From Polyangiaceae bacterium (GTDB lineage Bacteria; Myxococcota_A; Polyangia; HGW-17; JALWFW01), in the NCBI GenBank assembly GCA_027013865.1, contig JALWFW010000177.1:406-11246 (forward strand): a stretch of DNA of 10,841 nt, written 5' to 3'. The translations under genes and the position numbers were made by a program. How positions within the stretch are numbered: the stretch's first letter is position 1; the number at the start of each line of letters is the position of its first letter. The notes beneath the pieces are model-generated. The model was not told where the DNA came from, did not search any database, and was given only the letters and a program-made list of their open reading frames with translations. Of this stretch, positions 685 to 10,841 are shown one piece after another.

Positions 685-1533
685 ATGTTCACCACAATGA
701 TTACTGCCATGACGCTCATGATGACCCAGCCGGTTCCGGCTGATTATCAGTCCTATTCTAGATGTGAAACAGCAGACAGTCAGTGGGGTTACGACGAATC
801 ATGTGATTCGGGGTGCGACTGCGGGTGCGAGGAGGCGGCTCCGGCAGCAGTCGGAACCACTCCTGTGGTGCGTCCCATGTCGCAACCATCTGTACCAAAG
901 GATCTGGCAACACCAGAGAACCATTTTGAACAGTCCCTGGACACTTCTCTTTTGACCCTGGACACTGCCAAGGCACTTCCCAGGGATGTCATGGTCTTTG
1001 GTACCAACTTCTATATAGTCCCTTCATTGAGAGCGGGTTTGGGTTATGGACTCGAGGCCGGAGTCACCATGTTCGGCGTATATCCCATGTTCACTCTCAA
1101 GAAGGAGATCATAAGCACCGATTCCCTCGTGGTGTCGGGTTCAGGCGCCGCCCTTATTGCCGATGATGGTGAAGGCCTGATGTTCGCGGGCCTCAAGTCT
1201 CAATTGAGTGCCGGACCGCTGAACCTTTACGGTGATATTTACTTCGGGGTGCCACTGAAGGAGACTGATTCCTCATCCAGTACCATCAAGTTGGCGAGAC
1301 TCGGGGCCAAGGCCAGGCTGACTCCCACCCTCTCCCTTCTGGGTGAGGTCTGGAGTGCCTCGGGCAACCTTGCCATGGAGGACGGTGTGATTGCACTGAT
1401 GGGCATGAGGTTCACCTGGTATGTGGCTTCCAAACCCCGTTATGTGGATGTTTTCATGGTTTCTCACATAGATGAGTATGGCTCCACGGACTATCTACCC
1501 ATGCTCATGATGAACTATGGCCTGACCTTCTGA
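685..1533 (+). CDS. Putative outer-membrane beta-barrel protein with an N-terminal Cys6 cluster (C-x12-C-x3-C-x-C-x-C)
   Basis: Strong RBS GAGGAGGAG 5 nt upstream of the ATG. Hydrophobic N-terminus (possible signal peptide, although there is no basic n-region). Amphipathic beta-strand alternation throughout the C-terminal ~200 aa and a terminal ...NYGLTF (C-terminal Phe OMP signature). No family recognised by eye. Confidence 0.7.
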   Translation: MFTTMITAMTLMMTQPVPADYQSYSRCETADSQWGYDESCDSGCDCGCEEAAPAAVGTTPVVRPMSQPSVPKDLATPENHFEQSLDTSLLTLDTAKALPRDVMVFGTNFYIVPSLRAGLGYGLEAGVTMFGVYPMFTLKKEIISTDSLVVSGSGAALIADDGEGLMFAGLKSQLSAGPLNLYGDIYFGVPLKETDSSSSTIKLARLGAKARLTPTLSLLGEVWSASGNLAMEDGVIALMGMRFTWYVASKPRYVDVFMVSHIDEYGSTDYLPMLMMNYGLTF

Positions 1534-1555: not shown

Positions 1556-2371
1556 TTATAGACTGAAAGGTGGAATGAAAAGGGTGTTGCCGTCTATGTG
1601 TACGTCTGCCCCAAGGACAACCGGGTGGTTTTCGGGTCCGTGTCCTGCAGGAAATCCGTACAGTACTGGAACTTCAGGCAGCAACGAGGTTACTAGGGCT
1701 GCTACATCCCGCTCGTCCAGTCCAGAAAACCGGCCGAGCACCACAGCCAGGGCTCTGTCTAAACCAGAACACCTTATCAGTTGCACCAAGGCGCGGTCTA
1801 TGCGGTACATGGGTTCGCCCACGTCCTCCAGGATGACGATGTAGCCGCTCAAATCTGGAGAGGCTTCAGTTCCACACATGGATGCCAGTACGGTCAGATT
1901 GCCTGCTGCTGCAGGACCTTGGACGCGGATTTCTTCCCCGTACAGTCGGTATGAGCGGGCAGGCATGTAGCCATCATCGAGCAGCATGGCAGTAAGGGCT
2001 CGGGAAGTACTGTCTAGACGTGGGAACTGGGTCACCACGGGTCCGTGGATGGCAGTGTGTCCGTTTGCGTGCCAGGCAAAGAGCAGGGCCGTGACATCAG
2101 AAAATCCCAGGAGCGCAGCCGATGGAGTTATGTGGTGGACTATGCGTGTAGCACCGTAACCACCGCGTGCTGCCCACAGAAGATCTGCGTATTCGGCTGC
2201 CTGTTCGAGGAGGCGTATCCTCGTGGCATCATCGGCAGCCAGGTAACTACACGGGCCTGAGGGCGGATCGGATACCTCGTGAAACACGGGTTCGCCTCCC
2301 CACTGCCTTAGTCCCTCTGCCACTTTTTCAGGATCTGCTGCCCCTGACGGATATACGATCGCTATGCGCAT
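1556..2371 (-). CDS. ldcA: LD-carboxypeptidase (peptidase S66, LdcA/MccF family)
   Basis: N-terminal IAIVYPSGA and the nucleophile motif GFSDVT, then the Glu in VILEDVGE and the His in FPAGHGPEN, give a Ser-Glu-His triad at the usual positions over the right length (271 aa). No obvious SD. Lies 21 nt after the upstream gene. Confidence 0.85.
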   Translation of the reverse strand: MRIAIVYPSGAADPEKVAEGLRQWGGEPVFHEVSDPPSGPCSYLAADDATRIRLLEQAAEYADLLWAARGGYGATRIVHHITPSAALLGFSDVTALLFAWHANGHTAIHGPVVTQFPRLDSTSRALTAMLLDDGYMPARSYRLYGEEIRVQGPAAAGNLTVLASMCGTEASPDLSGYIVILEDVGEPMYRIDRALVQLIRCSGLDRALAVVLGRFSGLDERDVAALVTSLLPEVPVLYGFPAGHGPENHPVVLGADVHIDGNTLFIPPFSL

Positions 2372-2392: not shown

Positions 2393-3412
2393 TCATTCGG
2401 TTTCTGTGGATTTCTTCTTTTTGCGACTTTTGCGTTTTTTACGGCTTTTGCGTTTTTTCTTTTCTCCAGAGGTGTCTGCAGGTTTGTCGCCGGATCCATC
2501 AGATTTCTCAGAGGACTCTTCAGAGTTATGGACTGAAGCGTCTTTCTGATCTTCTTCTGGGTGAGACGAGGGCTGCCCAGCATCTATCATGGAGGCCTCT
2601 TCCTCTACCTGTTCTGATGAAGTGGAGCCTGCGTCCCCAGGCTGATCATCTGAGGTCTGTGTATCGGATGGTTCCTCTTCAGTAGTGTCCTGGGTCATCT
2701 CACTGTCGGTATCCTGTGACAGTGCGCTACCTGGCTTGGCTTCAGTCTGTTCGGCGGGTTCAGTCTGTTCGGCGGGTTCAGTCTGTTCGGCGGGTTCAGT
2801 CTGTTCGGCGGGTTCAGTCTGTTCGGCGGGTTCAGTCTGTTCGGCGGGTTCAGTCTGTTCGGTGGCTTCAGTCTGTTCGGCGGGTTCAGTCTGTTCGGCG
2901 GGTTCAGTCTGTTCGGCGGGTTCGCCGCCTATGTCGGGGCTGATATCGTTTTCATCGGAAACAGACTGTGCTGCCATCTCTTCAGGCTGATCAGAAGTCA
3001 CGTCGTCTCCGGAGAGTTCAGTGGCCTCTTCAGCAGCGGGTTCCGGTTCATCTTGCGTTGTGGTAGCCGGGGATATGTCACTTTCAGAGGTATCTTCCGT
3101 ATGTTCATCCTGTAAGGTCTGGACATCTGAGTCTCCTGCTTCCAGCCATCTTTCGAAGACGTCCAGATGGCTATCACTCATCTCGTCCAGTCTCAGGAAC
3201 ATACCTGGGGCCTGATCGCCGATAGCTTCCCTCGATGTGCCCACTATCACCATGCAGTCAATGGTCTCTTCTCCCCTGGTTATTGTCATGGAGAGGCTGG
3301 TTCCCACAGGCATGGGGTCTTTGACCTGTACCTCGAACCCATCTAGGGATATGGCTTCCAGAGGTAGGTCACTGTATAGCGTTATGTCATGGTAGGTAAT
3401 AGATGCTTTCAT
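2393..3412 (-). CDS. Chimeric protein: non-canonical PilZ-like N-terminal beta-barrel domain, a highly acidic disordered region with ~10x PAEQTE tandem repeats, and a polybasic C-terminal tail (KKKRKSRKKRKSRKKKK)
   Basis: ATG at 3410-3412 is preceded by GAGAGGTG (preferred over the in-frame GTG at 3421). The first ~95 aa, with AISLDG and a ...GMFLRLDEMSDSHLDVFERWL C-terminal end, resemble a PilZ domain. They lack the RxxxR and D/NxSxxG c-di-GMP motifs. The remainder is D/E/T/S/Q-rich low complexity ending in a K/R run. Confidence 0.75.
   Translation of the reverse strand: MKASITYHDITLYSDLPLEAISLDGFEVQVKDPMPVGTSLSMTITRGEETIDCMVIVGTSREAIGDQAPGMFLRLDEMSDSHLDVFERWLEAGDSDVQTLQDEHTEDTSESDISPATTTQDEPEPAAEEATELSGDDVTSDQPEEMAAQSVSDENDISPDIGGEPAEQTEPAEQTEPAEQTEATEQTEPAEQTEPAEQTEPAEQTEPAEQTEPAEQTEPAEQTEAKPGSALSQDTDSEMTQDTTEEEPSDTQTSDDQPGDAGSTSSEQVEEEASMIDAGQPSSHPEEDQKDASVHNSEESSEKSDGSGDKPADTSGEKKKRKSRKKRKSRKKKKSTETE
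2738..2924. repeat. Near-perfect 18-bp tandem repeat (unit GGGTTCAGTCTGTTCGGC), 10 full copies plus a partial one; in frame, encoding (PAEQTE)n on the minus strand
   Basis: Read directly. Units run 2738-2755, 2756-2773 and so on to 2900-2917, with a partial unit at 2918-2924. Only three units carry single-base variants (units 1 and 8 have GGC at their 5' end, unit 7 ends GGT). Confidence 0.95.
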
Positions 3413-3453
3413 GGTGTGCACCTCTCAAAAGGAGACAGTGGGTAAAGGATGCC

Positions 3454-4776
3454 TTAGACCGGCTGAGCCGAACCGCAGTAGGGACAGAACTTCATGCCTG
3501 GCATGATTTCCTTGCCACAGGTTACGCAGTGGGGAGCTGCCTGGGCATGTTGGGTAGCTCCACAGAAAGGACAGAATTTCGATCCTTCCGGAATCTCCTT
3601 ACCGCAGTTCACGCATTTGACTTTGGGAAGTTCTGATAGTGGATTGCCGCAGTTCGGGCAGAACTTGAGTCCTGGACCCACAGGATAACCACATTTCGGA
3701 CATGCAGAAGAGCCCGGCGCCTGCTGTGGTGGAGTTTGCGTTGCTCCTGGTGCTGCCATGGTTGCCGCTGCTCCGGCTGCTGCTCCGGCTGCCATCTGTG
3801 CCTGATGAGGCTGTTGGGGCATGGCCCCTGCGGCTCCCTGGGGTGGCGGTGGCGGGGGGTATCCTCCAACACCTGCTCCCTGTGGCGGATATCCCTGCTG
3901 TCCGTACATTGCCTGCATTCCGGGATTCATGGACTGCGCCACCATTCCTGGCATCATGAATCCCATGCCAAGCCCCATGCCCATGCCCATGCCTGCACCT
4001 GCGGTTCCGTCTCCACCCGAGTTCTTGGCCAGATCTCGCATTGCATAGGCCATCTGGTACTGCTGGAATGCTCCCATGGAGTTTTCGAACAGCCCCATTC
4101 CACTGCGCTCGTCGATTTTCTTCTGTACTTCCGGCGGCGGGGTAATTGCTCCTATACGCAGATCTTCCAATTCGAGGCCGTTTTTGGCGAAGTCATCGGC
4201 AAGACGGGCCTTGGTGGCAGTGGCTATCTCATCGAAGAGGCCGGCCAGCTCCATGATACTCTTCATGATCTCGCCAATTACGTCGATGAGACGCTGCACC
4301 ACGGCATCCCTTGCCCAATTTGCCATGTCACTGGCCGTGTAGATGCGGCTGCTCTTGAGACGTTTGTTCACGAACAGAACCGGATCCACTATGCGGTATG
4401 TCAGGGAACCGAAAGAGCGCAACCTTACGACTCCCATCATGGAATCCCGCATGGGGATGGGTTCCTTGGTACCCCACTTCTGGTCGTCGATGAGTCCCAC
4501 GTCAACGAAGACCACTTCGGCCTTGAAAGGAGTTCTACCGTCGAAGGCCGCGCCGATGACCTTGCCGAGCAAGGGTAGGTTGCCTGTGGACAGGGTATAG
4601 CGACCTGGACCGAAGGTGTCCAGTGCCTGACCGCCCCTGTAGAAGATTGCCACCTGTCCTTCCCTGACGATGAGCTGGGAACCCCACTTTATGTCAGCCT
4701 CGCCGTCCTGGGGTATGCGGACGGCCATGACCTCTCGCGAATCATCTAGATATTCTATGAGATCGAGTAATGGCAT
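3454..4776 (-). CDS. SPFH/Band-7 family (Band_7_1-like) protein with a Gly/Met/Pro-rich linker and three C-terminal zinc ribbons
   Basis: RBS AAAGGAG 7 nt upstream of the ATG. The N-terminal ~250 aa (LIVREGQVAIFYRGGQALDTFGPGRY...) is typical of Band_7_1 SPFH proteins. It is followed by GMGMGMGLGMGFMMPGM / PPPPPP low complexity and then 3x [CxxCG-x8-10-KFCPxCG]. The (CATGCC)n DNA at 3963-3992 encodes the GM run. Confidence 0.85.
   Translation of the reverse strand: MPLLDLIEYLDDSREVMAVRIPQDGEADIKWGSQLIVREGQVAIFYRGGQALDTFGPGRYTLSTGNLPLLGKVIGAAFDGRTPFKAEVVFVDVGLIDDQKWGTKEPIPMRDSMMGVVRLRSFGSLTYRIVDPVLFVNKRLKSSRIYTASDMANWARDAVVQRLIDVIGEIMKSIMELAGLFDEIATATKARLADDFAKNGLELEDLRIGAITPPPEVQKKIDERSGMGLFENSMGAFQQYQMAYAMRDLAKNSGGDGTAGAGMGMGMGLGMGFMMPGMVAQSMNPGMQAMYGQQGYPPQGAGVGGYPPPPPPQGAAGAMPQQPHQAQMAAGAAAGAAATMAAPGATQTPPQQAPGSSACPKCGYPVGPGLKFCPNCGNPLSELPKVKCVNCGKEIPEGSKFCPFCGATQHAQAAPHCVTCGKEIMPGMKFCPYCGSAQPV
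3963..3992. repeat. Short hexamer repeat (CATGCC)n inside the SPFH gene, encoding the GMGMGMG linker
   Basis: Three perfect tandem CATGCC units at 3975-3992 plus a degenerate copy at 3963-3968. Confidence 0.7.
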
Positions 4777-4779
4777 GGA

Positions 4780-5262
4780 TTACTCCTTTCCTTCGCCGGA
4801 GCTCAGAATGTGTTCCCTGTCGTTCAGTGCCTGATCTATTTCTCTCAGAACGGAGGAGAAATTGATGAAGGCCATTTTCGGATCGCCACTAGCCATGGCG
4901 CTTTCGATGGCATCCATGGCATCGAAGGCCTTCTGGCGCAGTGTTTCGAGTTGCTGATCGTATTCTTCCACCTTGCGCAGTGCGTCTATTTTGGATGTGA
5001 AGAGACCGGGTGCGAAACCCATGTTGGACCAGTTGAGGCGGTCCCTAACTTTCCTGAGAAGCATGGTTGCCTGTTCTGCGTCATTGAGAAGCTGCATCTT
5101 GGTGAGATCACGTGAAATCATGACCTTTACCTGCTCCATGCGTGAATGAAGTTCGCCTAGTTTGGTACTCATGTATTCACGCAGAGCCCGATCCGTATTG
5201 CGACTCTCCTCACGTTGTCTGTAACCTTTGTAACCGGGAATTATATAATCCAAGATAGCCAT
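4780..5262 (-). CDS. Hypothetical cytoplasmic protein (~160 aa), helical/coiled-coil character, no transmembrane segment
   Basis: The ORF stop lies 3 nt before the SPFH start. GAGGAG sits 6 nt upstream of the ATG at 5262; the ATG at 5268 has no spacing to the SD and is rejected. Charged heptad-like segments (LRKVEEYDQQLETLRQKAFDAMDAIE). No family recognised. Confidence 0.65.
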   Translation of the reverse strand: MAILDYIIPGYKGYRQREESRNTDRALREYMSTKLGELHSRMEQVKVMISRDLTKMQLLNDAEQATMLLRKVRDRLNWSNMGFAPGLFTSKIDALRKVEEYDQQLETLRQKAFDAMDAIESAMASGDPKMAFINFSSVLREIDQALNDREHILSSGEGKE

Positions 5263-5277
5263 GCTCATCTCCTCTTA

Positions 5278-5622
5278 TCAGTCGTCTTCCGATTCTTCCT
5301 TTTTACCGGCTGATGCCCTGCGGTAGCCGGAGTATACGAGTCCTGCGATCACTAGGAGCAGCAATGGCCACGTACGGCCTAGACCTGCCAGCCCTGATGA
5401 GGACAAGAACCAGAAGAAGAATAGCACGGACCAAAAAGCCCAGAATTCTTTGGTGAAGGTCACCAAGGCCAGGGATCCGAACAGCGCAGTACCCACGAGG
5501 GGCCACAGTCTACTGACGGAACTGATGCCGAAAGTGACAGGAAGGGCAAAGATCAGTCCTGCTGTGATGAGGGTGGTCAGTACAGGAATGAGTACTTTGT
5601 TTTTGGAAGATTTGTCACCCAT
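5278..5622 (-). CDS. Small integral membrane protein (114 aa, ~4 predicted TM helices, acidic C-terminal tail)
   Basis: RBS CGAGGT 8 nt upstream. Starts 11 nt after the OmpA-family stop. Four hydrophobic 18-22 aa segments (VLIPVLTTLITAGLIFALPVTF, LWPLVGTALFGSLALVTF, FWAFWSVLFFFWFL..., WPLLLLVIAGLVYSGY). Confidence 0.7.
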   Translation of the reverse strand: MGDKSSKNKVLIPVLTTLITAGLIFALPVTFGISSVSRLWPLVGTALFGSLALVTFTKEFWAFWSVLFFFWFLSSSGLAGLGRTWPLLLLVIAGLVYSGYRRASAGKKEESEDD

Positions 5623-5633
5623 GGTGGACCTCG

Positions 5634-7886
5634 TTATTTGGCAAGTTTGAGTATGTGGAATTCAACCCGTCTGTTTTTGGCGCGGGCACGCTCCGAGATG
5701 TTGGGATAAATGGGTCTGGAACGACCGTATCCCTTGGTCCTGAGACGTGATGACTCGACACCCTTGGATATGAGGTAGGCACGCACTGCATCCGCACGCT
5801 TCTGGGACAGACGTCTGTTGTACTCATCGCTGCCCTTGTTGTCGGTGTGACCGTCTATGCGCACCAGTTTGATCTCTGGATGCTCTATGAGGAATGCCGC
5901 GATCTCGTCGAGCAGGAGTTTAGACCTTTCGGTCAGTCGTGCCGTATTGCGTTTGAAGTAGATCTTGCGTCTGAGAAGAATACGCGTTTTGCGGCGGTTG
6001 AGTTTGATGTGAGACTTGCGCGGCTTGCGCTTGAGGGATACCGTGACCTTTGGAGCCGGACAGGATTTGATGTCTAATTCCTTTGATACTGTAAGATATT
6101 TCCGTGATTTGATGACCACACGGTAGGTACCTGTGGGAACGGTGACGTTCTTACCGCTGGCAGGAATGGTCTCTTCCATGGAGATGTCTTTGCCTGCACT
6201 GTCCTTGCCTCTGATTGTGATAGAGGCTTTGATCTTCCGGTTTTTCTTGGCATCACGGATTTCGAAGGCCACGTCGCAGCCCTGGGCAGCCTTGTGTTTG
6301 AGTACAAGTGATACAGAGGCCTTTTTGCCGGGTTCGACCCTGACTTCCGTAGTGGCCTGCTCGAATCCCTTCTTGTATGCGATCACCTTGTATGAACCGG
6401 CCTTCAGGCTGCATGTCGAGAAACTGCCGCTCTCGTCGGCCAGTACGTCACTCATGCCAACTCCCGGAAGTGAGACTGCAGCACCAGGAACCGGATTACC
6501 CTTATCGTCCTTGATGAGACCAACGATGGCCCCAGTGACCGGGGCAGCCGCCTTTGCAGGCTCCTTGACCACTTTGATGATCTCTTTGGGTTTGCACACA
6601 GGGCAATTGCATGCAGGACACTGGGCGGAAGACGAGGTTTGAGAAGAAGGCACGAAAGTGATGGAGGCCAGGACATTGTATGGAGGAAGTGATGGAGCGA
6701 CCTTGTACCCTGGCTGCGAAATATTGATGTCTGCTCCTAGTCCTATGCTCACTTCCGGCGTGACCATGGCATTCAGGCCCAGGGTGAGTACCTGGCTTGT
6801 ATTGCCGTTTTTGGCAGCTTCGGTATCTACTGACAGATACTGCTCGATGTTACTGAGATTGGAATCGTCATCCACGAAGTAAATGAGGGAATACTCCATG
6901 AATGGGGTGAGATATACGGGACTTCCGGCCACCATGAACCTGTGGGTGTAGTCTGCGGCCAGCCGTAGCAGCGCTCTCGAAGGCATGACGCCCATGGCGT
7001 AACGGTGGACTATATATGTATAGAAGAGTTCTGGAAGGACGTCGGACTCTGCGTTGGCCCAGTCAGGAGAATCAAGCAGAGAATAGGAATTGTCCTGGAT
7101 ATAACCGGCATTGAGATGAAGTCCCACAGGGATACCCGCAGACTGTTTCAGACTGTAGGAGGCCAGGAGCATGGCAGCTATGGACGTCGCTCCAATGTCG
7201 GGAGCTATGTCGCCGACACCTGAATAAAGTCTGACGAAGCCCTCGAAACCTATATCAAGGCCAGGTGCCGCGTCTATGGGCATCGCCCACTTGCCGCCAA
7301 GCATGAAATCACCCATGGAACGTTGAACCTCTGGCTCGTAGGTGTCTGCTTCCCGGGTACGCTCATTGCGGTTGCTGGATGACAGGAGTGCCAGTTGCAG
7401 TTCGATGGAAGGGTATACCCGAAATGCCATGTGAAGGCCACCTGCCAGTCTGGTATTGGTCTCGTCATGGCCTGCAATGAGGAAATCCGACTGACGGAAC
7501 CATTCGAGGTGTAGTCCCATGGCGACACGATGGTTCAGGTCGGTAAGTACCGTGTGCATCAGTCCTGTTCCAAGGCCTGATGTCAGAGGAATCATGTGAG
7601 CGTGTTCGGTGTTGGGACGTGTACCGGATGCAGGTGGTAGGTCGGCAGTGGCCGGTTCTGCGGAGGGGGTTCTTTCGGGCTGAGTCTCGGGTTTGGGGCT
7701 GGTGACCTGAGGAGATGTCGTCACGGTAGCCTGAGGCTGAGTCTCGGGGGCTGTCCCGTTGCCCGGATCCGATGCCTGAGAAGTTGCCTTGTTCTGCTGT
7801 GCCTGTGTAGGCAGCGCCATGGCCAGTGCGATAACCATGGTTGCCATCGCCACTACAGAATTTCTGACCCGCGTCCTTACGTACAT
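5634..7886 (-). CDS. OmpA-family outer-membrane protein (750 aa): signal peptide, Pro/Thr-rich linker, ~330-aa beta-barrel-like region ending ...ASITF, CPACNCPVC cluster, two CarboxypepD_reg-like Ig-fold domains, C-terminal OmpA/MotB peptidoglycan-binding domain
   Basis: ATG at 7884-7886 with GGGAGG 6 nt upstream (preferred over the TTG at 7913). Signal-peptide-like YVRTRVRNSVVAMATMVIALAMALPTQAQQ. OmpA_C motifs are conserved (IDGHTDNKGSDEYNRRLSQKRADAVRAYL...NRRVEF). Two ~80-aa GxY...G.Y.V prealbumin-like repeats. Confidence 0.85.
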   Translation of the reverse strand: MYVRTRVRNSVVAMATMVIALAMALPTQAQQNKATSQASDPGNGTAPETQPQATVTTSPQVTSPKPETQPERTPSAEPATADLPPASGTRPNTEHAHMIPLTSGLGTGLMHTVLTDLNHRVAMGLHLEWFRQSDFLIAGHDETNTRLAGGLHMAFRVYPSIELQLALLSSSNRNERTREADTYEPEVQRSMGDFMLGGKWAMPIDAAPGLDIGFEGFVRLYSGVGDIAPDIGATSIAAMLLASYSLKQSAGIPVGLHLNAGYIQDNSYSLLDSPDWANAESDVLPELFYTYIVHRYAMGVMPSRALLRLAADYTHRFMVAGSPVYLTPFMEYSLIYFVDDDSNLSNIEQYLSVDTEAAKNGNTSQVLTLGLNAMVTPEVSIGLGADINISQPGYKVAPSLPPYNVLASITFVPSSQTSSSAQCPACNCPVCKPKEIIKVVKEPAKAAAPVTGAIVGLIKDDKGNPVPGAAVSLPGVGMSDVLADESGSFSTCSLKAGSYKVIAYKKGFEQATTEVRVEPGKKASVSLVLKHKAAQGCDVAFEIRDAKKNRKIKASITIRGKDSAGKDISMEETIPASGKNVTVPTGTYRVVIKSRKYLTVSKELDIKSCPAPKVTVSLKRKPRKSHIKLNRRKTRILLRRKIYFKRNTARLTERSKLLLDEIAAFLIEHPEIKLVRIDGHTDNKGSDEYNRRLSQKRADAVRAYLISKGVESSRLRTKGYGRSRPIYPNISERARAKNRRVEFHILKLAK

Positions 7887-7911
7887 ATCCGCCTCCCTTA
7901 CTGATGGTGAC

Positions 7912-7940
7912 AATATATAAGAAACCTCGTGCGGTTTCCA
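7912..7940 (-). promoter_or_regulatory. Candidate sigma-70-type promoter of the six-gene envelope operon: -35 TGGAAA (7935-7940), 17-nt spacer, -10 TATATT (7912-7917)
   Basis: Read on the minus strand as TGGAAAccgcacgaggtttcttaTATATT. Lies 26 nt upstream of the ATG (7884-7886) and immediately upstream of the GGGAGG RBS. A T6 run (7945-7950) follows the rluA stop. Confidence 0.3.
7921..7938. promoter_or_regulatory. Perfect palindrome GAAACC-N6-GGTTTC overlapping the -35 element and spacer of the operon promoter; candidate repressor operator
   Basis: 6-bp perfect inverted arms read directly. The position over -35 and the spacer is typical for a repressor site. The half-sites have a GAAC/GTTC flavour, but the spacing is N8 between GAAAC cores. 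Confidence 0.35.
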
Positions 7941-8942: not shown

Positions 8943-9530
8943 TCAGTCATAGAACGGTTCGGGTGGCGGTGGTGCTGGCTGAGCACTTCCATCATCCTGT
9001 TCGCTGCCGTCATCCTGCTGGATGGGCTGCGGAACTATGGGCGGAGCTGCCGGAGCCGGTGGACGTACACCGAAACCGGTGTCGGATTCAGGAGACTTGT
9101 CCTGGATGGCATTTCGATGGTGTGCGGTTCCGTGAGCTACTTTGCGTCTGAGTCGCCTTCTGTGTGGTTTCCTCGAAGCTGGCCTCCTGACTGAACAGCG
9201 GAAGGCCATGCCGGAAACGAAAATCTCGAGGAACTGACCTTCTCGTTTGGCCCCGTACGTGTTTACGACCACGACGTTGGCACCCAAATTGAAGGCTTTG
9301 TTCCGGGCATCGGTAAGCGCTGCCTCCCAGATTGCCTCCTTGGAAGAGGTCCCCCGCGCAACTCCCTTTATTTGATCAGTGGCTGTACACCCGCTGCCAG
9401 GGGATGTCTTCATGAGAACACGGATATTCTCACTTCCTGGCACGGGTCTTGGCATGTGGGCCTCCGGCATCCCCGTGCATGCTGAAAGACCCAGAAATAC
9501 GATGACTGCTGTGATGCTGTAAGGCTTCAT
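8943..9530 (-). CDS. Lipoprotein (lipobox LSAC) with a YbjQ/UPF0145-like domain and a polybasic, Pro-rich C-terminal tail
   Basis: RBS AAGGAG 7 nt upstream. N-terminus MKPYSITAVIVFLGLSAC. The segment ...ARNKAFNLGANVVVVNTYGAKREGQFLEIFVSGMAF resembles the YbjQ LGADAVVGI...MVSVSGTAV core. The tail is RRPASRKPHRRRLRRK followed by PPAPAAPPIVPQP...PPPPEPFYD. Confidence 0.7.
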   Translation of the reverse strand: MKPYSITAVIVFLGLSACTGMPEAHMPRPVPGSENIRVLMKTSPGSGCTATDQIKGVARGTSSKEAIWEAALTDARNKAFNLGANVVVVNTYGAKREGQFLEIFVSGMAFRCSVRRPASRKPHRRRLRRKVAHGTAHHRNAIQDKSPESDTGFGVRPPAPAAPPIVPQPIQQDDGSEQDDGSAQPAPPPPEPFYD

Positions 9531-9583: not shown

Positions 9584-10060
9584 TCACAGACGCATGTCTC
9601 TTATTATTGCCGCCACGGTGCCCACGGCCTCGCCGGAGTCAAAGGAAAAACGCCTGCCGCTGCGGTACATGCGGTAGCCTGAATCGAGCTCTTTGGCCAC
9701 CACTATGAGATCTCCCGGTTTGAAAGGGCCTAGAGCTTCATCCATCTCCACTGCGAAAAATTCGCCTTCTCCTGTGTAGGATGCATCTACTGTTATGTAC
9801 CTTACGAGATGGCCGCTACGGGTATAAAGTGGGATGGACAGTGCCTGGGTCACAGGCACCAGGGAACGGGCGATTCCCTTTTCTCTCTTGAGATATCCTT
9901 TCTCCACCAGTTGGTTCACATGAAAGCTCACGGCGTTGGTGGACTTGAAGTTGAGCTCTTGGCAGATTTCCCTGTATGACGGCGCGTATCCGTGGCTTTT
10001 GAAGTATTTTTCGATGAATCGTAGTACTTCGTTCTGACGTGGAGTAAGCCCGTCTGCCAT
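9584..10060 (-). CDS. LexA-like transcriptional repressor (158 aa): LexA-type winged-helix DNA-binding domain plus a short, divergent C-terminal domain
   Basis: ATG at 10058-10060 with AAGGAGG 7 nt upstream. N-terminus MADGLTPRQNEVLRFIEKYFKSHGYAPSYREICQELNFKSTNAVSFHVNQLVEKGYLKREKGIARSL matches the LexA_DNA_bind pattern. The C-terminal 88 aa contain GDLIVVAK (LexA GDLLAVHK-like) but no GxSM Ser and no Ala-Gly cleavage site by eye. The 391-aa ORF in the track is an out-of-frame extension over the peptidase gene. Confidence 0.7.
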   Translation of the reverse strand: MADGLTPRQNEVLRFIEKYFKSHGYAPSYREICQELNFKSTNAVSFHVNQLVEKGYLKREKGIARSLVPVTQALSIPLYTRSGHLVRYITVDASYTGEGEFFAVEMDEALGPFKPGDLIVVAKELDSGYRMYRSGRRFSFDSGEAVGTVAAIIRDMRL

Positions 10061-10841
10061 TATTTGCCCTCCTTGCTCCACGCTTTGCCCCGCACCATGT
10101 CGGTTATGTCCCATGGTGACGGGCCACCGCCCAGATAGCGGTGGAACCAGTCGAGATGAGCTGCGTAATAAAGAGGCATGGATTTGACGAAGTTGGGCCA
10201 GTGACCGTCGTTGGGGAAGATGATGATTCTTGCGGGAATGCCACGTCTGCGCAGTGCCGTAAACAGCTGCATGCTCTGGGTGTATGACACGCGGTAGTCC
10301 TTCTCTCCGGTGATGATGAGGGTTGGGGTCTTCATGTTCTTGACATAGGTGGACGGAGACCACTTCCTGTAGCCTTCGGGGTTGTCCCATGGCGTGCCGC
10401 CCACGTCCCACTCGGGGAACCACAGCTCCTCGGTTACGCCGTACTTGGATGGCAGGTCGAACACGCCCATCATGGAGGCGATGGCCTTGAACCTGTCGGT
10501 GTGGCCCAAAAGCCAGTTCATCATGTAGCCTCCGTATGACCAGCCCATGGCTCCCATGCGGTTGGGATCCACGTAGGGCAGAGAGGCCAGATAGTCGGTG
10601 ACCTTCATCACGTCCTCGTAGACCTTGCCTCCCCAGTCTTTGGAGATGGCGGCTGTGTACTGCTGTCCGTATCCAGTGGAACCGTGGGGATTTGGGAACG
10701 CCACCACGTATCCTGCGCCCGGATATACCTGCCAGTCTCCTCTGAAGGAATCGGACCACTGTCCCTGGGGACCTCCGTGAACGTTGAGGATGAGCGGATA
10801 TTTCCTGCCAGGCGTAAATCCGTGGGGCTTTACTATGAATA
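10060..10841 (-). CDS. S9-family serine peptidase (prolyl oligopeptidase / acylaminoacyl-peptidase type), C-terminal catalytic domain; the 5' end lies beyond the window
   Basis: The reading frame is open to the window edge (…KPHGFTPGRKYPLILNVHGGPQGQWSDSF…). Nucleophile elbow GWSYGGY, Asp in ITGEKDYRV and His in PNDGHWP form the catalytic triad. The TAA stop at 10060-10062 overlaps the LexA-like ATG (TAATG). Confidence 0.9.
   Translation of the reverse strand, partial: FIVKPHGFTPGRKYPLILNVHGGPQGQWSDSFRGDWQVYPGAGYVVAFPNPHGSTGYGQQYTAAISKDWGGKVYEDVMKVTDYLASLPYVDPNRMGAMGWSYGGYMMNWLLGHTDRFKAIASMMGVFDLPSKYGVTEELWFPEWDVGGTPWDNPEGYRKWSPSTYVKNMKTPTLIITGEKDYRVSYTQSMQLFTALRRRGIPARIIIFPNDGHWPNFVKSMPLYYAAHLDWFHRYLGGGPSPWDITDMVRGKAWSKEGK

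Follow-up and report, generated by a model that had tools for sequence, protein, structure and literature searches.

The window analysed here, a stretch of 10,841 nt on contig JALWFW010000177.1 of a Polyangiaceae bacterium, carries on its minus strand a cluster of six genes that is conserved in Myxococcota MAGs: genes for an OmpA-like protein, a small membrane protein, a 162-aa protein and an SPFH-zinc-ribbon protein, a gene bearing a tandem repeat array and a gene for an LD-carboxypeptidase (Table 1). The upstream three (4780..7913) were assigned using Pfam and NCBIfam together with tblastn synteny in loci L001-L005, L007, L009 and L010. The SPFH-zinc-ribbon gene is the conserved partner of the array-bearing gene, with synteny in nine MAG loci; in the window it has the same orientation and is separated by 32 bp (3422-3453) from the GTG codon at 3421. 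The content of the cluster suggests a housekeeping-like context of the envelope-maintenance type. Scans of the window for Rfam families and tRNAs yielded no matches, and a promoter/terminator scan gave results no better than those for shuffled sequence.

Table 1. Features of the array-bearing gene and its cluster in the window.
Feature	Position	Strand	Description and evidence
OmpA-family protein	5634-7913	-	759 aa; upstream cluster member
Membrane protein	5278-5622	-	114 aa; upstream cluster member
162-aa protein	4780-5268	-	Upstream cluster member
SPFH (Band_7_1) protein	3454..4776	-	Upstream; three C-terminal zinc ribbons; Pfam Band_7_1 (7.6e-49), DZR, Zn_Ribbon_1
Array-bearing gene	2393..3421	-	342 aa from GTG 3421; ORF list, upstream sequence, syntenic orthologues of the same architecture
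PilZ-fold domain (predicted)	3131..3412	-	Six-stranded beta-barrel and C-terminal helix; AF2 (pLDDT 88 and 92-96), Foldseek
Acidic linker	2468..3130	-	About residues 98-318 (~220 residues); predicted disordered; holds the array
Array	2741..2920	-	Ten full 18-bp units; minus strand CCCGCCGAACAGACTGAA = PAEQTE; TRF edge 2923
Variant unit	2849..2866	-	Minus strand GCCACCGAACAGACTGAA = ATEQTE; sole deviating unit
Polybasic tail	2411..2461	-	KKKRKSRKKRKSRKKKK, then STETE; translation, TRF
LD-carboxypeptidase (Peptidase_S66)	1556..2371	-	Downstream, 21-bp gap; Pfam, synteny; conserved cluster member

The array-bearing gene ends with a stop codon at 2393-2395 and has two candidate start codons, of which the ATG at 3412 (giving 339 aa, with a ribosome-binding-like GAGAGG motif 8 nt upstream) is more likely than the GTG at 3421. 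Within the 342-aa ORF, the array corresponds to residues 168-227; it is internal, with 498 nt separating it from the GTG start and 348 nt (116 codons) from the stop codon. An earlier first-pass annotation of this DNA described an in-frame array that lengthens an acidic (PAEQTE)n segment, and on the minus strand the sequence indeed reads (PAEQTE)10. The same annotation held that the repeat creates spurious long ORFs in all frames of both strands, which is overstated: five of the six frames of the unit are stop-free, the third minus-strand frame (with a two-base offset from the PAEQTE frame) contains a TGA, and the spurious ORFs that have a start codon and run across the array number just two (2685-2990 and 2716-2943, each on the + strand). 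That the former of these, with its SVCSAG repeats, is the true coding frame, or that the region is non-coding, is scarcely credible. This ORF has a length of 101 aa and a GTG start in its favour, but it owes its existence to a unit without stop codons in that frame, whereas the minus-strand ORF is continued on one side by a domain with a confident predicted fold and on the other by a tail, both of which are conserved, with synteny, in other genomes; the + strand gene was rejected on these grounds. The minus-strand gene is real, because proteins with a homologous N-terminal domain are encoded immediately downstream of SPFH in Myxococcota MAGs (tblastn 6e-11 to 8e-7 at five loci and 0.03 at the truncated locus L003).

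Tandem Repeats Finder (TRF) identified a single array at 2741-2923 with a period of 18, 10.2 copies, 97% matches, 0 indels and a score of 352, and a unit-by-unit reading gave ten complete units (2741-2920; + strand unit TTCAGTCTGTTCGGCGGG). The array is real and very homogeneous, as first annotated at 2738-2924, and its limits differ from that earlier estimate by at most 3 bases. Three single-base variants had been counted; two were found, both in the unit at 2849-2866 (+ strand TTCAGTCTGTTCGGTGGC), while the third is the edge codon at 2738-2740 (GGC vs GGG). The remaining nine of the ten units are identical at every base, including synonymous positions, and the variant unit divides the array into two stretches of perfect periodicity, 122 nt (2741-2862) and 57 nt (2867-2923) long. 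A chance origin is excluded because ten matches to the unit were observed at three or fewer mismatches, compared to a mean of 0.01 in 200 dinucleotide-preserving shuffles, and because only ~0.002 identical 18-mer pairs are expected by chance across the whole window. The units exceed microsatellite units in length and stand head to tail with high inter-unit identity, as in a VNTR. A CRISPR array was ruled out, as the units abut without spacers inside a conserved ORF. Single-stranded folding of the array DNA produced weak, ill-defined hairpins (MFE z-score -3.8, centroid essentially unpaired), and no structural signature promoting slippage was found in it. The copy number rests on one assembly, in which the longest stretch of perfect periodicity measures 122 nt; a short-read assembler that uses a small k can count the units of such a stretch wrongly. 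Both substitutions in the variant unit are non-synonymous and fall at first codon positions. Their confinement to a single unit, together with their non-synonymous character, runs counter to simple neutral decay; the variant could have arisen in one complex event, or it could be an ancestral seed unit.

No Pfam match was obtained for the repeat protein. AF2 structure prediction, which used a 4-sequence alignment, produced a model with six strands and a helix at residues 83-97 (pLDDT 88), and with pLDDT 88-96 over residues 1-93. The predicted model thus shows the six-stranded beta-barrel and C-terminal alpha-helix of PilZ domains, and the best 37 Foldseek matches in the PDB are almost all PilZ domains (TM-score 0.6-0.74), including MotI, PA4608, Alg44, MrkH, YcgR and BcsA. 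At the sequence level, weak TIGR02266 matches were found in seven of 11 family members, the TIGR02266 score of 20.5 bits lies below the curated cut-off of 68.7, a phmmer search matched the tandem-PilZ protein P0007 (1.1e-5), and Pfam PilZ (PF07238) did not match the window protein and matched only one of 11 members, at E=0.17. Residues 31-75 were also matched by phmmer to DUF11-like repeat proteins of great length (P0004-P0006); these matches were discounted as short local similarity (V.DP.P..G) and not domain homology. The family shares the motif (E/D)P(M/L)PVAT, which in the window reads DPMPVGT. Two motifs define c-di-GMP binding in PilZ domains, RxxxR and [D/N]xSxxG (10.1101/814665). A motif scan showed that all 12 family members lack both RxxxR in the N-terminal loop and [D/N]xSxxG; the sole RxxxR match in the family, RGTGR at residue 58 of L005, is internal, and the window protein has AISLDG where [D/N]xSxxG would stand (alignment A1). 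In this PilZ-fold barrel both c-di-GMP-binding motifs have been lost.

From residue 95 to the C-terminus the AF2 model has pLDDT values of 41-54 and no secondary structure, and the linker is predicted to be intrinsically disordered. Over the 215 residues scored it is 32% D+E and 1% K+R, contains no aromatics and has a net charge of about -65; the share of the array is 60 residues and a charge of -20. A further short tandem repeat, likewise in frame (2418-2458, period 18, sub-period 9, 2.3 copies by TRF), encodes part of the polybasic tail that follows. A K/R tail is present in all ten complete family members, and the eleventh, L003, ends at a contig end. Because the product sequence shows no visible export signal peptide or membrane segment and a PilZ-type barrel stands at its very start, the protein is not an obvious surface antigen; it looks cytoplasmic.

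Searches for relatives and alternative alleles recovered no conspecific or near-identical sequence in any collection searched. The exact 36-nt repeat dimer had 0 matches in metagenome contigs and 0 in viral contigs, exact look-ups of the SPFH protein, the 162-aa protein, the repeat protein from the ATG and the LD-carboxypeptidase found none on record, and cluster look-ups of ten family proteins for repeat-length variants returned singleton clusters only. When compared with a set of 5.8 billion proteins, the full-length protein matched only low-complexity look-alikes in unrelated proteins and the N-terminal domain alone matched nothing, while a profile search with alignment A1 recovered the L003 protein only. 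When the family alignment was used to scan metagenomes, 130 pattern matches were obtained, 0 of which were confirmed against the window; as confirmation relied on a divergent first sequence, distant relatives were probably lost. The family was extended by ORF inspection and alignment (L004, L005 and L011) and by an exhaustive phmmer search of 1.8 billion representatives, which added P0008 and P0009.

Among the orthologues the barrel and the tail are conserved and the linker varies in length from 86 to 215 residues. Seven of ten family genes carry in-frame linker arrays with mutually unrelated units of 15, 18, 39 or 69 bp. Besides the window, these are found in L003 (39 bp x2.8, 95%), L004 (69 x3.6, 98%), L007 (15 x4.7, 92%), L009 (18 x5.2, 80%) and L010 (15 x11.1, 84%), with a minimal array in L001 (12 x2.6, 84%) as the seventh. 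No tandem array was found in L002 or L005, and L001 and L011 have minimal short matches only. The units of the orthologues include EEPVA, APPAVE, GAIET, SDEEPAEEASDEV and one 23-residue unit. Between close family members the differences comprise entire repeat blocks: L007 has an array that is absent from L009 and vice versa, and L002 and P0008 are 97% identical in the barrel and 64% identical elsewhere. Hexapeptide runs of PxEQT(E/K) also occur in linkers of the unrelated proteins P0001-P0003, which fits a generic spacer sequence and not a specific motif. These comparisons suggest that the linker is constrained in composition (acidic, Pro/Ser/Thr/Gln-rich, no aromatics) and not in sequence. 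They further point to the window array as the youngest case of recurrent repeat birth within the family linker, because seven of the ten genes carry unrelated arrays at differing stages of decay.

Based on these results, the array is most probably a young in-frame coding minisatellite in the acidic disordered spacer of a cytoplasmic adaptor-type protein belonging to the conserved SPFH-zinc-ribbon cluster. The first-pass annotation proposed recent expansion, and recent expansion or ongoing homogenisation is the natural reading because nine units are identical, synonymous sites included, compared to the 80-84% to which decayed orthologue arrays have fallen. In a linker constrained only in composition, duplications of whole codon blocks would be tolerated; they would arise by replication slippage or unequal recombination, so that arrays may appear repeatedly, grow while their units are identical and later decay via point mutation. 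Here, one 18-bp block would have grown to ten copies, adding 60 residues and 20 negative charges. Each unit gained or lost would change the spacer by 6 residues (an estimated contour length of about 2 nm) and 2 charges and leave the frame unaffected. As judged from the architecture of the protein, the linker may act as a spacer of given length and charge, or may pair electrostatically with the basic tail, and would span the distance between the barrel and the target of the tail, which may be an anionic membrane or nucleic acid. Copy number may plausibly vary among present-day strains, for which the rapid turnover of linker repeats between related species of this family is indirect evidence; VNTR mutation rates are reported to increase with copy number (PMC3777172).

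The array could instead be a functional multivalent peptide module (e.g. ten docking sites or a metal-binding acidic array) kept homogeneous through selection and gene conversion. The occurrence of only two substitutions, both amino-acid-changing and in one unit, and the recurrence of acidic repeats at the same position in orthologues would fit such a module, but we consider it unlikely: no specific peptide is conserved, because the orthologues have unrelated units or effectively none, the region is predicted to be disordered, similar PxEQTx runs are found in unrelated linkers, and selection on the peptide would not hold synonymous positions identical across nine units. A different concern is that faulty assembly produced the copy number or some of the array, in which case a loop of the de Bruijn graph was collapsed or expanded and the true allele is shorter, longer or heterogeneous. 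The source appears to belong to an uncultured-type lineage absent from all collections searched, and many assemblers work with k-mers shorter than a perfectly periodic stretch of 122 nt. We nevertheless give an artefact little credence, as the interior variant unit anchors the array and leaves two runs, of 122 nt and 57 nt, each of which could be spanned with 150-nt reads or with a k exceeding roughly 105 (k being an estimate), and as the frame is preserved and both flanks continue into conserved parts of the protein.

The array was also annotated initially as a candidate contingency locus. In a true contingency (phase-variable) locus, hypermutable repeat changes cause adaptive phenotype switching, and the high purity and ten copies of this array are features tied to high slippage rates; as a precedent, the accessible text of one study of Mycobacterium tuberculosis describes tandem-repeat copy number as phase-variable (PMC12817950). 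The array cannot, however, switch the gene on or off because its 18-bp unit (6 codons) is inside an ORF, where a change in repeat number would neither shift the frame nor alter promoter spacing or strength. A surface, host-interaction or restriction-modification function is likewise not apparent in a protein that lacks a visible signal peptide or membrane segment and has a PilZ-type barrel first, the source lineage is of a free-living Myxococcota type and the gene lies within a conserved housekeeping-like envelope cluster. With in-frame changes, an array internal to its ORF and a product that looks cytoplasmic, we consider a contingency locus very improbable.

The minisatellites and VNTRs used for MLVA typing of Yersinia pestis and E. 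coli O157:H7 consist of head-to-tail units of 6-20+ bp with high identity, some of them within ORFs and with lengths divisible by three, and they mutate by gain or loss of whole units (PMC3777172; PMC3689786). The window array is alike in its head-to-tail, highly identical, in-frame units; VNTRs are polymorphic by definition, whereas this array is known from one genome of an uncultured-type Myxococcota lineage. In the ClfA/Sdr proteins of Staphylococcus aureus, an 18-bp Ser-Asp repeat region encodes an acidic low-complexity stalk, the length of which varies by unit without loss of frame; these are secreted, wall-anchored surface proteins of a pathogen. The window protein likewise has an 18-bp unit, a short acidic low-complexity peptide and an extended spacer between functional ends, but it has no export signal and instead carries a PilZ-type barrel at its start and a polybasic tail at its end.

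PilZ adaptors that do not bind c-di-GMP (Xanthomonas XC1028/XAC1133 and tPilZ Xcc0612) are thought to act via protein-protein contacts (10.1101/814665). Xanthomonas adaptors are among the structural matches of the window barrel (3dsg, 3ph1, 3rqa and 7lkm). Beyond the fold, XC1028/XAC1133 and Xcc0612 have no detectable sequence relationship to the window protein and lack the acidic disordered linker and polybasic tail that it possesses, and their context is one of type IV pilus genes and not an SPFH/OmpA/LD-carboxypeptidase cluster. The order of folded N-terminal domain, acidic region and basic tail is that of Myxococcus xanthus CarD, in which an N-terminal interaction domain precedes a highly acidic region and a basic DNA-binding tail; its C-terminal region combines the acidic stretch with basic AT-hooks and is histone-H1-like in Anaeromyxobacter (PMC2919716). 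The CarD N-terminal domain, however, belongs to the CarD_CdnL_TRCF family, the tail has RGRP AT-hooks that do not occur in the window protein, and the context of the window gene points to the cell envelope and not to transcription. An HMGA/histone-H1-like CarD-type domain was rejected based on the lack of RGRP, the PilZ-fold N-terminal domain and the lack of a Pfam match.

With respect to the neighbouring gene, the Bacillus subtilis YdjI/SamI module is a system in which an SPFH Band_7_1 protein works with partners of zinc-ribbon and membrane type and which, according to the available text of its descriptions, forms at the membrane when the envelope is stressed (PMC8581546; 10.64898/2026.02.06.704340). 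The window neighbour similarly combines Band_7_1 SPFH with zinc ribbons beside small membrane and helical proteins. No PspA was identified in the window, the link is one of gene neighbourhood only, and the available text of the same descriptions mentions no PilZ-fold/acidic/polybasic partner (PMC8581546; 10.64898/2026.02.06.704340). It is conceivable, though we regard it as doubtful, that proteins with a PilZ fold, acidic linker and polybasic tail form an undescribed class of adaptors for Myxococcota SPFH-zinc-ribbon scaffolds. The barrel would dock to the SPFH complex or a cluster partner, the tail would bind an anionic membrane or nucleic acid, and the linker would serve as an adjustable ruler or an auto-inhibitor, an "evolvable spacer" with length and charge adjusted under selection by repeat birth and loss.

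The array itself is an ordinary kind of coding minisatellite and biologically unremarkable, and neither it nor the family changes current understanding of repeats or PilZ proteins. Its use as a typing marker is plausible if isolates or long-read metagenomes of the lineage appear, and it marks a spot where short-read assemblies may mis-count units. The greater value lies in the small uncharacterised family to which the gene belongs, which joins a PilZ fold without c-di-GMP motifs to an acidic spacer and a polybasic tail and is always encoded beside an SPFH-zinc-ribbon gene. The repeated gain and loss of tandem repeats in the spacer of this family provides a clean natural example of disordered-linker evolution through repeat turnover.

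Tandem Repeats Finder (TRF) identified a single strong array in the window, built from the plus-strand unit TTCAGTCTGTTCGGCGGG. The first-pass annotation had described a highly homogeneous, in-frame array, and both points were borne out: nine of the ten complete units are identical at every base, and the minus-strand codons CCC GCC GAA CAG ACT GAA encode PAEQTE. Of the three single-base variants counted at that time, two lie in one unit, where both changes are non-synonymous, while the third falls in a partial edge codon outside the complete units. Spurious ORFs had also been described in every frame of both strands. The unit is indeed free of stop codons in five of six frames, but a TGA interrupts the third minus-strand frame, which lies two bases out of step with that of PAEQTE. 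Of the spurious ORFs that have a start codon, just two run across the array, both on the plus strand. Chance cannot explain the array: with up to three mismatches allowed, the unit has ten matches compared to 0.01 expected (200 shuffles), and ~0.002 identical 18-mer pairs are expected by chance in the whole window. No further copies were found elsewhere in the window. Perfect periodicity extends over 122 nt at most. This places an assembly caveat on the ten-unit count, but the variant unit inside the array speaks against a pure assembly loop. We conclude that the array is a real, ordinary coding minisatellite of a known kind, located in a predicted disordered acidic spacer.

Positions of the array, its gene and other features in the window
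Feature	Positions	Strand	Remarks
282-aa ORF	685-1533	+	Opposite strand; no family assignment; Cys-rich N-terminal stretch CETADSQWGYDESCDSGCDCGCEE
Array gene	2393-3421	minus	342 aa from GTG; ATG at 3412 more likely the start, with a GAGAGG motif 8 nt ahead of it
Tail repeat	2418-2458	minus	In frame; period 18, sub-period 9 bp, 2.3 copies, 91% identity; encodes polybasic KRKSRK KRKSRK
Partial edge codon	2738-2740		
18-bp array	2741-2923	minus	Period 18, 10.2 copies, 97% matches, 0 indels, score 352 (TRF)
Ten complete units	2741-2920	minus	In register
Variant unit	2849-2866	minus	ATEQTE; two base differences
SPFH (Band_7_1) gene, three zinc ribbons	3454-4776	minus	Upstream neighbour of array gene
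SPFH linker repeats	3742-3793, 3962-3993	minus	Low complexity, between SPFH domain and zinc ribbons; one of 27/12-bp period (Ala/Gly-rich), the other of 6-bp unit, 5.3 copies (GMGMGLGMG)
162-aa protein	4780-5268	minus	No Pfam family; weak NCBIfam LIMLP_15305 match (1.5e-5, far below cut-off)
DUF4156 lipoprotein-like protein	8943-9530	minus	Pro/Ala-rich C-terminal extension with short imperfect duplication QQDDGSEQDDGSAQ
158-aa LexA-type protein	9584-10060	minus	Clear LexA DNA-binding domain (2.7e-21); no S24 peptidase domain detectable; directly downstream of Peptidase_S9 gene
Peptidase_S9 gene, C-terminal part	10060-10707		Probably extends beyond
Mechanical GTG ORF	9584-10759		Fuses LexA/Peptidase_S9 region in a different frame

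Residues 1-97 of the window protein (the array gene product) were confidently predicted by AlphaFold2, from a four-sequence alignment, to fold into a six-stranded barrel with a C-terminal helix (mean pLDDT 88). Nearly all of the top 37 PDB matches found with Foldseek were PilZ domains (TM-score up to 0.74), including MotI/DgrA, PA4608, Alg44, MrkH, YcgR and BcsA as well as non-binding Xanthomonas PilZ proteins. A weak but consistent TIGR02266 match was present in 7 of 11 members of the protein's family (best 20.5 bits, cut-off 68.7), and none of the family proteins reached the Pfam PilZ threshold. [quoted passage not shown] In a motif scan, neither [D/N]xSxxG nor an N-terminal RxxxR was found in any of 12 family members, the sole RxxxR match being internal (in L005). 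Because both motifs are missing, we consider the PilZ fold to be present but do not class these proteins as c-di-GMP-binding PilZ domains; PilZ-fold adaptors working via protein contacts are the best functional analogy. From residue 95 to the C-terminus, the full-length model has a pLDDT of 41-54 and no secondary structure. The linker contains 32% Asp+Glu, 1% Lys+Arg and no aromatics (net charge about -65), while the last 30 residues carry a charge of +12.

Relatives of the SPFH gene were found at 42 loci in a scan of one genome per GTDB species, in which there was no close representative of the source organism. The closest relatives are from Myxococcota/Deltaproteobacteria MAGs (60-61% identical from end to end and up to 74% in the SPFH domain). 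At L001, L002, L007, L009 and L010, the next ORF downstream of the SPFH gene aligns with the first ~100 residues of the window protein (tblastn 6e-11 to 8e-7). The truncated locus L003 gave a weaker match to the N-domain (E 0.03), and L004, L005 and L011, which encode more divergent members, were added following ORF inspection and alignment. When 1.84 billion representative proteins were searched exhaustively with the N-domain (phmmer), only two more members came up, P0008 and P0009, together with P0007, a tandem-PilZ protein. The best matches in this search, P0004-P0006 (E 1e-10 to 5e-6), are very long proteins of 1,215-2,013 aa that carry DUF11-like repeats in tandem. Alignment is confined to residues 31-75, around V.DP.P..G, and occurs in up to 6 repeats per protein; this resemblance is treated as local similarity between beta-rich modules, with a distant relationship possible. 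All complete members have a ~95-residue conserved N-domain (invariant Y10, P36, P38, V39, T41, V60, E65 and M74; motif (E/D)P(M/L)PVAT), followed by an acidic middle part of low complexity and, at the C-terminus, a tail rich in K/R. On these sequence comparisons, the array gene is real and part of a small conserved family.

In nine MAG loci the gene order is kept: OmpA-like, small membrane protein, 162-aa protein, SPFH-zinc-ribbon, array gene and LD-carboxypeptidase. A second clade (L006, L008 and L012-L016, Myxococcota) retains only the 162-aa and SPFH pair, followed by ORFs of ~285 aa and ~310 aa, conceivably acyltransferase-like and NAD-epimerase-like, respectively, that stand in place of the repeat protein and LD-carboxypeptidase. 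Because the downstream genes differ between the clades, it is the SPFH pair that forms the conserved core, and the genes that follow can be exchanged. The 162-aa gene directly precedes the SPFH gene in 15 of 17 Myxococcota-type loci, including those of the clade lacking the repeat protein, and its product seems to be an obligate SPFH partner. At orthologous loci, the gene after LD-carboxypeptidase encodes a conserved ~530-aa protein rather than the 282-aa ORF of the window, and synteny therefore stops at LD-carboxypeptidase. The array gene may be co-transcribed with its neighbours, since little sequence separates them: 32-41 bp from the SPFH stop codon, according to the choice of start codon, and 21 bp to the LD-carboxypeptidase gene.

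When ten family genes (L003 being incomplete) were analyzed with TRF, seven proved to have in-frame arrays, of unrelated units, within the acidic segment.

In-frame arrays in the acidic segment of family genes (TRF)
Gene	Unit (bp)	Copies	Identity
Window	18	10.2	97%
L003	39	2.8	95%
L004	69	3.6	98%
L007	15	4.7	92%
L009	18	5.2	80%
L010	15	11.1	84%
L001 (minimal)	12	2.6	84%

Closely related members, compared pairwise, differ by entire repeat blocks. An APPAVE array is found in L009 but not in L007, while a GAIET/GAIEG array is found in L007 but not in L009. L003 and L004 have barrels that are 78% identical but arrays that differ entirely; the barrels of L002 and P0008 are 97% identical, against 64% for the remainder, with the last ~45 residues almost identical again. 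Family linkers are 86-215 residues in length, the longest being that of the window protein, of which 60 residues come from the array. As similar hexapeptide runs, PxEQT(E/K), also occur in linkers of unrelated proteins, the sequence is that of a generic spacer. Most simply, codon-block duplications repeatedly arise, expand and decay in the family linker, whose composition is constrained and whose sequence is not. The window array would be the youngest instance because its units are identical even at synonymous sites. In the tail of L004, (KKKKS)n is encoded by 5.9 copies of a 15-bp unit; as the window tail is also repetitive, the basic tail likewise evolves through repeat expansion.

The array had been proposed as a candidate VNTR and contingency locus. 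The second term does not apply, because there is no on/off effect and the product is neither a surface protein nor a restriction-modification protein. The first requires copy-number polymorphism, and no second allele came to light: exact look-ups of four window proteins returned no record, and word-indexed protein searches and cluster look-ups of the family proteins were empty or gave singletons only. Contigs from metagenomes and viruses held no exact match to a 36-nt query, and a family-pattern scan of metagenomes was likewise empty. Copy number may still vary among strains. Expansion probably occurred via replication slippage or unequal recombination, from what is generally known of such repeats and from reports that VNTRs mutate faster at higher copy number (PMC3777172); folding of the array DNA gave no hairpin signature.

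Each PAEQTE unit adds six residues and two negative charges, and the linker may serve as a spacer in both length and charge or may pair electrostatically with the basic tail. For the putative tail target, an anionic membrane is favoured by the envelope context (SPFH, OmpA, LD-carboxypeptidase). Nucleic acid is an alternative suggested by myxobacterial CarD, in which an acidic region is combined with a basic DNA-binding tail (PMC2919716), much like the acidic linker and basic tail seen here. The gene neighbourhood provides a further lead: in Bacillus subtilis, SPFH Band_7_1 proteins with zinc-ribbon and membrane partners are reported to form membrane-stress assemblies (PMC8581546; 10.64898/2026.02.06.704340). 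The value added to a known kind of repeat is modest: an uncharacterised family in Myxococcota, tied to SPFH genes and composed of a PilZ-fold barrel, an acidic linker and a polybasic tail, which gives a clear picture of linker evolution through repeat turnover.
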